NCBI GenBank assembly: GCA_964441635.1
Contig: CAYTUZ010000001.1
Span: 1-34,327 of the forward strand
Direction of reading: 5' to 3'
From: an uncultured Candidatus Saccharibacteria bacterium
GTDB taxonomy: Bacteria; Patescibacteriota; Minisyncoccia; Phycocordibacterales; PALSA-1337
DNA: 34,327 nt
In this document: one piece after another, positions 9,242-34,327 of the stretch
Position numbering within the stretch: the first letter of the stretch is position 1
Layout of the letters: every line of letters starts with the position of its first letter
Position numbers and translations under genes: made by a program
Notes under the pieces: generated by a model
Told to the model about the DNA's origin: nothing
Database searches by the model: none
Seen by the model: only the letters and a program-made list of their open reading frames with translations

Positions 9242-9623
9242 CTCCGGAGACAGGATTCGAACCTGTGACCAATCGCTTACGTTTGCTCCATTATTACTAA
9301 TGGTACGGACTATATCATTCCCGTACTGTTTTGCTTCCGCTTTTCGGCGAATGCTAAACAGGTTAGGGAAGAGGCGCTTCCGCAAAACTTGTAAGTCTTG
9401 AGTACTCCCATAGGGATAGTCTCTACACCTTCAGAGAACTGGATTTAAATTCAATTCAATACAAATAAAATTCAAATTCAGTTCTCCGCTTGGCTCGGTA
9501 TTGCCCTCTGGCTTTTTAAACCCAAGGGTTTCACCGAATTCACCTCTTTTACAACCAGATTTTCACCTGGAAGCTGCTGTATTACGTTCACAGGCGACTG
9601 CTCTACCGCTGAGCTACTCCGGA
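9242..9623 (-). tRNA. tRNA-Asn(GUU) interrupted by a 310-nt intron in the anticodon loop. Exons are 9623-9590 and 9279-9242. CCA is not encoded.
   Basis: The joined exons give a 72-nt cloverleaf. Acceptor is UCCGGAG/CUCCGGA. D arm is GCUC-AGCGGUA-GAGC. Anticodon arm is GUCGC-CUGUUAA-GCGAU. T arm is ACAGG-UUCGAAU-CCUGU. Discriminator is G. Confidence 0.85.
9280..9589 (-). ncRNA. group I intron, IC3-like, without ORF
   Basis: It follows an exon U and ends in G. It contains AAUUCGGUGAAACC, CCGAGCCAAGC, GAAGGUGUAGAGACUA and GAUAUAGUCC core blocks. A GNRA-capped hairpin (CCAUUA-GUAA-UAAUGG) lies near the 3' end. Confidence 0.8.
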
Positions 9624-9669
9624 ATATTTACCTTTCAAAGTTCTGTTCGAATAATGTATCATAAAGTCC

Positions 9670-9885
9670 ATGTATATCAAAGCCCACGTTTTTCCGGATT
9701 CCAAGAATGAAAGTGCCAAAAGAGAAGGTGATAGCTTGCTCGTCATTCATGTCAAAGAGCCCGCCGAAGCCAATCGCGCCAATAAAAGAGTACTGGAAAT
9801 TGTGAGAGGCATGTTTCCGGGCAAGACCGTTCGACTAGTAAGCGGTCACCAAAGTCCGCACAAGATCGTATCTATAGGTGAGTAA
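9670..9885 (+). CDS. DUF167 (YggU-like) family protein
   Basis: 71 aa. The pattern V.EP.E.NRANK..LE.....F......LVSGH.SP.K matches what I recall of DUF167. Confidence 0.55.
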   Translation: MYIKAHVFPDSKNESAKREGDSLLVIHVKEPAEANRANKRVLEIVRGMFPGKTVRLVSGHQSPHKIVSIGE

Positions 9886-32108: not shown

Positions 32109-32192
32109 GCGCAGGTGGCAGAGCGGTCAATTGCAATGGACTGTAAATCCATCGCCCTATGGGCTACGGGGGTTCAAATCCCTCCCTGCGCA
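32109..32192 (+). tRNA. tRNA-Tyr(GUA), type II with a long variable arm; CCA not encoded
   Basis: Acceptor GCGCAGG/CCTGCGC. Anticodon arm ATGGA-CTGTAAA-TCCAT. Variable stem GCCC/GGGC. T loop TTCAAAT. Discriminator A. Confidence 0.9.
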
Positions 32193-32278
32193 CAAAAAGG
32201 ACGAGCGAAGCGAGTACTTTTGCGCAGGAGGAAGACGCCTACGCGTCTTCCGTGAGGGATTTGAAAAGTCTGAGCATA

Positions 32279-34273: not shown

Positions 34274-34327
34274 CGGGCGATGAGGGAATCGAACCCCCGA
34301 CAGCGGTTTTGGAGACCGCAGTTATGC
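34274..34327 (-). tRNA. tRNA-Trp(CCA), 3' two-thirds; the 5' end lies outside the window
   Basis: The minus strand reads GCGGT-CTCCAAA-ACCGC, then TGTC, GGGGG-TTCGATT-CCCTC, ATCGCCC and G. Confidence 0.8.

Follow-up and report, generated by a model that had tools for sequence, protein, structure and literature searches.

A 310-nt insert with the features of an endonuclease-free group I intron interrupts a tRNA-Asn(GUU) gene of Patescibacteria

Introduction

In a stretch of 34,327 nucleotides from an uncultured Candidatus Saccharibacteria bacterium (contig CAYTUZ010000001.1), hereafter the window, the two halves of a tRNA-Asn(GUU) gene lie 310 nt apart. The question raised by this locus is whether the insert is a complete group I intron, to which kind of intron it belongs and whether its host and insertion site are new. 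In genomes of the candidate phyla radiation (CPR), the tRNA set is complete only when intron-bearing tRNAs are counted (PMC8172020). The original prediction, made from the sequence alone, read the insert as an IC3-like group I intron and knew of no precedent either for tRNA-Asn as a host or for an insertion between positions 35 and 36.

The best explanation, in which we place high confidence, is that a 310-nt group I intron devoid of an endonuclease separates U35 from U36 in a tRNA-Asn(GUU) gene of Patescibacteria (CPR). The basis at hand consists of sequence, fold, covariation, distribution and a presence/absence polymorphism. Novelty of host and site, on the other hand, does not hold. Specifically, the survey of about 80,000 genomes by Williams 2020 (bioRxiv 10.1101/2020.01.27.920355) recognizes 21 intron-split tRNA types where four (Leu.3Ug, Arg.5Ug, fMet.2Ug and Ile2.5Ug) had been known before, and its seed alignment holds Pam37.Asn.4Ug, Mba143.Tyr.4Ug, Wba81.Asp.4Ug and Mpe6.Lys.4Ug, the figure 4 in its naming scheme meaning after the fourth loop nucleotide, that is 35/36. 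As far as this seed alignment and naming scheme go, the host is anticipated by Asn.4Ug (CUGU/UAA), to which at least 87 further split tRNA-Asn genes are added below, and the loop position by the Asn, Tyr, Asp and Lys members alike. The window intron has the features of the Asn.4Ug class so defined, namely a tRNA-Asn host, splicing after the fourth loop nucleotide, U at -1 and G at omega. A first literature search on group I introns in tRNA-Asn had returned organelle papers only, the bacterial Asn.4Ug class being found in Williams 2020. In other words, the window intron is a further case of an already catalogued host and site, and one that occurs in many uncultivated bacteria.

The interrupted tRNA-Asn gene

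The gene is read from the minus strand of the window. Its 5′ exon (9590..9623, 34 nt), delimited by ARAGORN both on the joined exons and in intron mode, comprises the acceptor 5′ strand, the D arm, the anticodon-stem 5′ strand and C32-U33-G34-U35. The 3′ exon (9242..9279, 38 nt), delimited by sequence and ARAGORN, comprises U36-A37-A38, the anticodon-stem 3′ strand, the variable loop, the T arm, the acceptor 3′ strand and G73, with no encoded CCA. A script run on the minus strand retrieved the exon and intron sequences, as well as all five sequence blocks quoted in the original prediction, at the positions assigned to them. When joined, the 72 nt of exon sequence are identified by ARAGORN as tRNA-Asn(gtt) and form a clean cloverleaf with a GUU anticodon, the expected U1-A72 pair and the discriminator G73 of bacterial tRNA-Asn; the spliced junction reads ...GTCGCCTGT|TAAGCGAT....

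A search with intron detection had been proposed as a check on the split gene and it bears the split out: applied to the genomic stretch in intron mode, ARAGORN reports a tRNA-Asn(gtt) with a 310-nt intron at the claimed junction, cctgt|...|taagc. The choice of the splice site is equally sound, given that of the eight possible splits of the anticodon loop, compared by hand, CUGU|UAA alone places a U at -1 and a G at the end of the intron.

With default settings ARAGORN misses the tRNA-Asn in the 34-kb window and calls a tRNA-Tyr as the only tRNA, and Rfam at gathering thresholds lists two tRNAs in the whole window and not the intron. The same default ARAGORN run finds no second, uninterrupted tRNA-Asn within the 34 kb. 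As to the other tRNA genes of the window, a tRNA-Tyr(GTA) with a long variable arm lies at 32109-32193 on the plus strand and a further tRNA, truncated at the end of the window, at 34274-34327 on the minus strand, both of them uninterrupted. An assembly artefact is excluded, since two independent ENA assemblies carry the 382-nt locus at 100% identity; a Logan contig covers 261 nt of it, also at 100%. Upstream of the gene, about 30 nt from the tRNA 5′ end, a consensus scan picks out a promoter-like site with a TG element, TTGATA-16-TACATT (9653..9680, minus strand). The scan gave 8 sites in the region against 1.7 expected, and this candidate is a match to the consensus and nothing beyond that.

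Identification of the insert as a group I intron

The insert extends over 9280..9589 on the minus strand (310 nt), with the G at 9589 as its first base and the omega-G at 9280 as its last. The Rfam group I model (Intron_gpI, RF00028), proposed from the start as a way of checking the assignment, matches the minus strand from 9606 to 9287 over model positions 1-253 with 48.9 bits and an E value of 1.9e-11 in a local search of 571 nt. This is a significant, full-length match, even if it falls 1.1 bits under the Rfam gathering score of 50. Together with the covariation described below, it upholds the reading of the insert as a group I intron that splits tRNA-Asn(GUU) between 35 and 36. On the evidence of its sequence, the 310-nt insert is a complete group I intron whose core helices are all intact and which would be expected to splice.

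Relatives of the intron score between 47 and 104 bits overall with the same model; those of the window's structural type that are reported lie at 70-104 bits, and those of other types at 47-56. The closest relative among the matches listed, L055, is not reported by Rfam at E ≤ 0.001. The long hairpins at the periphery of the window copy, in P6 and P8, are the probable cause of its lower score. On the plus strand, the P6 extension hairpin (9432-9488) also gives weak matches to miRNA-precursor models, with E values of 0.07-4.5 and scores far below the gathering scores; these were rejected as chance-level artefacts of a long hairpin.

Secondary structure and covariation

A P1-P9 model was drawn by hand in window coordinates and its pairs were then counted on a MAFFT alignment (A1) of 45 sequences, that is the window and 44 short relatives of its type. 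Standard pairs fill 89.6% of the cells, compared with 38-47% (maximum 46.7%) in controls whose 3′ partners were slid 1-3 columns along, and the covariation score is 0.423 compared with at most 0.162 in the slid controls. Compensatory change on both sides is seen in 41 of the 62 pairs, in particular in P2, P3, P4, P5, P6a, P7.1 and P8, and none of 500 shuffles reaches any of the observed pairing or covariation measures. The fold that had been suggested as a check is thus backed by covariation. In the window itself, standard pairs run through P1-P7.1, P9.0 and P9, and P8 has them at 4 of 5 positions.

P1 (9574..9593, minus strand, as are all the helices that follow) is formed by the exon CUGU (9593-9590) and the internal guide GCAG (9577-9574), with a U35.G wobble at the splice site. 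The pairing proposed in the original prediction between the exon and intron nt 13-16 thus proves correct, and all four pairs are invariant in the 45 sequences. A fifth pair, in which intron nt 1 faces the base preceding GCAG, is present in 59 of 76 relatives as against 20 of 76 in an offset control and occurs across the family as GC, CG, AU or GU; since it covaries in the family, it supports the 5′ splice site. In the window this position is G.A. The P2 hairpin (CCAGG/UCUGG, 9555..9570) is 96.4% paired, with compensatory changes in all five of its pairs.

The group I core is built around the pseudoknot of P3 and P7. The P3 5′ strand (AGAGGUG, 9541..9547) pairs with 9376-9370, the 3′ strand (CGCCUCU, 9370..9376) having been placed by the A1 pair counts; P3 is 98.1% paired and four of its seven pairs are compensatory. 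The P4-P5 domain (9495..9537; P4 UCGGUG/UACCGA, P5 CCCUU/GAGGG) includes the AAUUCGGUGAAACC block and part of the CCGAGCCAAGC block, and P4 is 97-98% paired with swaps of GC to and from CG and UA. At the position closing P5 (window ~9529 and ~9503) G...U and A...C seem, by eye, to alternate across A1 as isosteric wobbles. P6 (GCC/GGU) continues into a long A/U-rich P6a/b hairpin extension (9427..9494 in all) that is specific to the window copy. P6 is 100% paired and the P6a base 91% paired in the family; the 57-nt extension folds at -24.6 kcal/mol (z = -6.2), and L055 has at the same position a hairpin of 19 nt only. This extension and the long P8 account for the extra length of the window intron. 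The P7 5′ strand (GACUA, 9417..9421), in the R element GUAGAGACUA, pairs with 9312-9308 and is invariant in 45 of 45 sequences; its 3′ strand (UAGUC, 9308..9312), in the S element GAUAUAGUCC, is likewise invariant and agrees with the Rfam consensus. P7 as a whole is 100% paired.

Between P7 and the P3 3′ strand lies a further module of two helices, P7.1-GUA-P7.2 (9380..9416). P7.1 (9416-9406, UCCC-UAU-GGGA) is 98.8% paired with three of four pairs compensatory, and the GUA linker (9405-9403) is nearly invariant. P7.2 (9402-9380) and P9 vary in length and were for this reason misaligned by MAFFT, where they appear 51% and 72% paired, respectively. When P7.2 was retested sequence by sequence on 67 distinct sequences, it had on average 4.4 terminal pairs compared with 0.64 after shuffling; that of the window carries a mismatch. 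P8 (9319..9369) is a long extended hairpin on a UCCC/GGGA base that is 95.1% paired, with four of five pairs compensatory.

At the 3′ end, P9.0 and P9 occupy 9281..9306. P9.0 pairs GU (9306-9305) with AC (9282-9281), directly before the omega-G, and encloses the P9 hairpin, which is the GUAA-capped hairpin foreseen at 9303-9288. P9.0 is 100% paired with AU-to-GC and CG-to-UA changes, and because these two pairs directly before the omega-G covary, the 3′ splice site is fixed. Inspection of the window by eye gave no convincing P10, at most a single pair.

Subgroup assignment

The label of IC3-like is only half right. As regards the sequence blocks from P3 to P7 it is valid. Three of the four core blocks said to be shared with Azoarcus match its tRNA-Ile seed (Ile2.5Ug) at 17/17, 11/11 and 13/14 positions in a comparison that covered Azoarcus alone, the 11/11 and 13/14 being those of P4-P5. 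The fourth, GAUAUAGUCC, shares with Azoarcus only a 7-nt word and follows the Rfam consensus instead. These block matches are what speaks for the alternative that the window intron is a classical IC3 tRNA intron of the Azoarcus/Anabaena type that moved to a new tRNA. The architecture, however, argues against it. In the IC3 seeds Leu.3Ug, Arg.5Ug, fMet.2Ug and Ile2.5Ug the GAGACUA motif runs straight into P3′, without P7.1 or P7.2, whereas in the window 37 nt (9416-9380) intervene and form two GUA-joined helices upheld by covariation and by the per-sequence tests. In addition, P7.1 and P7.2 linked by G-U-A have been used to assign introns to subgroup IA2 (PMC3428280), and by this one subgroup criterion the window intron is IA2-like; the S element and the short P9 also resemble the general consensus rather than Azoarcus. 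A transferred classical IC3 intron is, in our judgement, quite unlikely, and the preferred reading is that of an intron with IC3-like blocks whose P7.1-GUA-P7.2 module is a hallmark of subgroup IA.

Relatives, intron-less alleles and mobility

Relatives were sought by scanning GTDB species genomes with a pattern made of the S element, the omega-G, U36-A37-A38 and the T arm, which gave at least 120 loci; the metagenome scan for the spliced junction likewise stands at 120 loci or more. The GTDB loci belong mostly to Patescibacteria and Saccharibacteria; a few carry the labels Omnitrophota, Gammaproteobacteria, Planctomycetes, Elusimicrobia or Oligoflexia. Locating and joining the exons identified at least 87 other tRNA-Asn(gtt) genes split as CTGT|...G|TAA, all 87 with a 5′ exon ending in CTGT. 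Of the remaining loci, the majority share the ...GGAG end of tRNA-Asn and yield no 5′ exon by a strict stem test. ARAGORN in intron mode had been tried on the relatives and was set aside in favour of exon joining, having returned inconsistent 'Thr(tgt)' calls from a different intron placement. Among the matches listed, the introns fall into two length classes (about 194-352 nt and 450-723 nt), with two longer ones in addition.

The neighbourhood of the gene is conserved as well. In the window it is flanked on one side by a DUF167-like gene, hpf, fmt, def, priA and a MurA/EPSP-synthase-family gene, and on the other by two hypothetical genes, an AI-2E transporter and a CrtC-like lipocalin. L055, a Patescibacteria metagenome-assembled genome (MAG) (JBBTRB010000004.1), has exons identical to those of the window, an intron of 237 nt and the same gene order, tRNA-Asn-DUF167-hpf-fmt-def-priA, at about 60% amino-acid identity, and several Saccharibacteria MAGs share parts of this neighbourhood. 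It is by this synteny that the window, whose own record is not among the loci listed, is assigned to a Patescibacteria (CPR) chromosome. Beside DUF167, hpf, fmt, def and priA, four further genomes from the spliced-junction scan (L183, L200, L149 and L145), with proteins 45-80% identical to those of the window, carry an uninterrupted tRNA-Asn, that of L183 scoring 74.7 bits with the Rfam tRNA model. The survey for intron-less alleles recommended at the outset has hence found them at the same syntenic position. Presence and absence of the intron at one conserved locus in comparably related genomes is what one would expect if the element were mobile or could be lost.

A second alternative is that the locus is a decayed relic, in which an old intron no longer splices and has turned the tRNA-Asn gene into a pseudogene. 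Some signs of decay could be seen in the lack of an endonuclease ORF, in a Rfam score just under the gathering score, in the G.A at the fifth P1 pair and in the P7.2 mismatch. Against this, the window copy has all its core helices intact and lacks neither the invariant R and S elements nor the GCAG guide or the omega-G, the exons give a perfect cloverleaf, and the extra length is confined to peripheral P6 and P8 hairpins that fold well. Moreover, syntenic relatives have preserved the arrangement, their proteins being about 60% identical to those of the window. All this makes a relic very improbable, and an intact intron remains the preferred reading.

As originally predicted, no homing-endonuclease ORF is present in the 310 nt of the window intron, whose P1 loop measures 12 nt. 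It is in this loop that the 450-723-nt relatives carry ORFs of about 100-135 aa, starting about 6-60 nt into the intron and marked by the motif CxxC...HH...CANCHxE. Their scores against Pfam HNH (17-20 bits) are weak and lie below the cutoff of 21.4; the ORFs are here termed HNH-like. Presumably the ORF of the longer members drives homing at the DNA level; the window copy would either have lost it or never had one.

A second ribozyme is found at the identical CUGU|UAA site of tRNA-Asn in at least 12 genomes (L014, L021, L035, L044, L046, L051, L096, L098, L099, L101, L111 and L119). This type B (GGGAUAACGGUGAA...GCGCCGUAGAGACUAGAUACC, without P7.1 and P7.2) closely resembles the published Tyr.4Ug seed, the window intron being of type A, and four loci (L007, L016, L058 and L114) fit neither type. 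Introns of both types carry the same HNH-like ORF family (L015, L107, L096, L046, L098 and others), with a mean identity of 61.6% between types versus 59-63% within types. The C-terminal ...TQLP of these ORFs is encoded by the conserved guide/P2 sequence GCAGCUUCC. Such ORF sequences suggest that one endonuclease is shared between two ribozyme scaffolds at one target site. Two other RNA matches were noted in genomes of the collection: a group II intron domain (48.9 bits, L091 6742-6818) a few kb from the intron-bearing tRNA-Asn of an Elusimicrobia MAG, and a LOOT RNA (78.2 bits, L014 1-120) in a MAG labelled Gammaproteobacteria.

Viral sequence collections were considered too. A 2014 review knew phage introns only in protein-coding genes (PMC3984707). 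In IMG/VR, 7 of 15 viral-collection matches (L247, L248, L250, L251, L256, L259 and L260) are tRNA-Asn-like genes split as CTGT|...G|TAA. Three of these (L247, L256 and L260) have a G1-C72 acceptor pair, unlike CPR tRNA-Asn genes, and some of the contigs may be misclassified CPR DNA. The search of a phage database gave a single 62-nt core match, to Rhizobium phage RHph_N3_13 (L261, MN988507.1, ~37533-38229), which was dismissed as an unrelated intron in a split ribonucleotide reductase gene. Its group I intron core, unannotated and 82% identical to P3-P5 of the window over the 62 nt, separates the N-terminal half of that gene from its C-terminal half, and an ORF annotated as an Srd-like sigma decoy is located in the gap.

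Proposed splicing pathway

By analogy with characterized group I introns, we infer that catalysis and exon ligation in vivo follow the standard pathway. The precursor tRNA-Asn would be transcribed from the minus strand and its intron would fold into P1-P9, allowing C32-U33-G34-U35 to pair with the GCAG guide and to present the U.G wobble at the 5′ splice site. Cleavage after U35 would then be brought about by a free guanosine docked in P7. Subsequently, the terminal G (9280), positioned by P9.0, would take the place of the guanosine in the P7 pocket, and U35 would attack the bond before U36, thereby ligating the exons into the mature tRNA-Asn. The anticodon stem on either side of the intron (GUCGC/GCGAU) probably contributes to keeping the exons aligned; a requirement of this kind is attributed to Zaug et al. 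1993 for the Anabaena intron (cited in PMC3984707).

A genuine group I intron might nonetheless be an inefficient self-splicer that needs a host protein cofactor or chaperone. The weak P10 could be read in this sense, as could the long A/U-rich peripheral hairpins, which might promote misfolding. We regard such a dependence as unlikely, in that nothing in the sequence specifically favours it and small bacterial tRNA introns, for example those of Azoarcus and Anabaena, self-splice in vitro (see the titles cited in PMC3984707). The preferred reading is still that of an intron splicing by the pathway outlined above.

Implications

The gene is missed by default tRNA finders and by the Rfam gathering threshold, with the consequence that the genome would wrongly appear to be without tRNA-Asn, and a tRNA-Asn missed in this way affects the inferences drawn on completeness and codon usage of CPR genomes. 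As an intron, it adds a well-supported, endonuclease-free example to a widespread family and in this respect opens no new question, while the presence/absence polymorphism at a conserved locus could serve studies of intron gain and loss. Three aspects of the family possibly have not been described before, a suggestion that we make tentatively and with considerable doubt: an IA-type ribozyme in a tRNA anticodon loop, an endonuclease exchanged with the type B scaffold, and an interrupted gene that may be the sole tRNA-Asn in many CPR genomes. If the interrupted gene were indeed the only tRNA-Asn, all decoding of Asn would depend on RNA self-splicing; and if types A and B do share an HNH-like family at one site, one endonuclease would have been exchanged between two scaffolds.

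Comparison with known systems

The Azoarcus tRNA-Ile(CAU) and cyanobacterial tRNA-Leu(UAA) introns (IC3) are, like that of the window, small group I introns of the anticodon loop without an ORF, and the P4, P6 and R-element blocks of Azoarcus are near-identical to those of the window. Their sites differ, being 36/37 and 34/35 (the 5Ug and 3Ug of Williams), respectively, and in addition to the missing P7.1 and P7.2 their J8/7-P7 3′ sequence and P9 region are unlike those of the window. The P7.1-GUA-P7.2 module is instead shared with the IA2 introns of phages and Bacillus, such as T4 td and the Pf-WMP3 DNA polymerase intron (PMC3428280), which reside in protein-coding genes and whose ORFs are usually found in P6a or P7-P9, not in P1.

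The closest published counterpart in host and site is the Pam37.Asn.4Ug seed of Williams 2020. In that seed sequence, as in the window, tRNA-Asn is split at CUGU/UAA (35/36) with U at -1 and G at omega, and the two introns share the GCAGC guide motif, an extra helix after GAGACUA, the AGCGCC P3′ strand and the CAC...GUG of P9.0. The seed, however, has one long helix between P7 and P3′, as do L058 and L083, where the window has P7.1-GUA-P7.2, and direct sequence similarity between the two is limited to short core words. Finally, the Tyr.4Ug and Asp.4Ug seeds of the same alignment share with the window the loop position and the 5′ exon CUGU and differ in the host tRNA. The same GCAG guide can serve Tyr, Asp and Asn, because all tRNAs with a GUN anticodon share CUGU.
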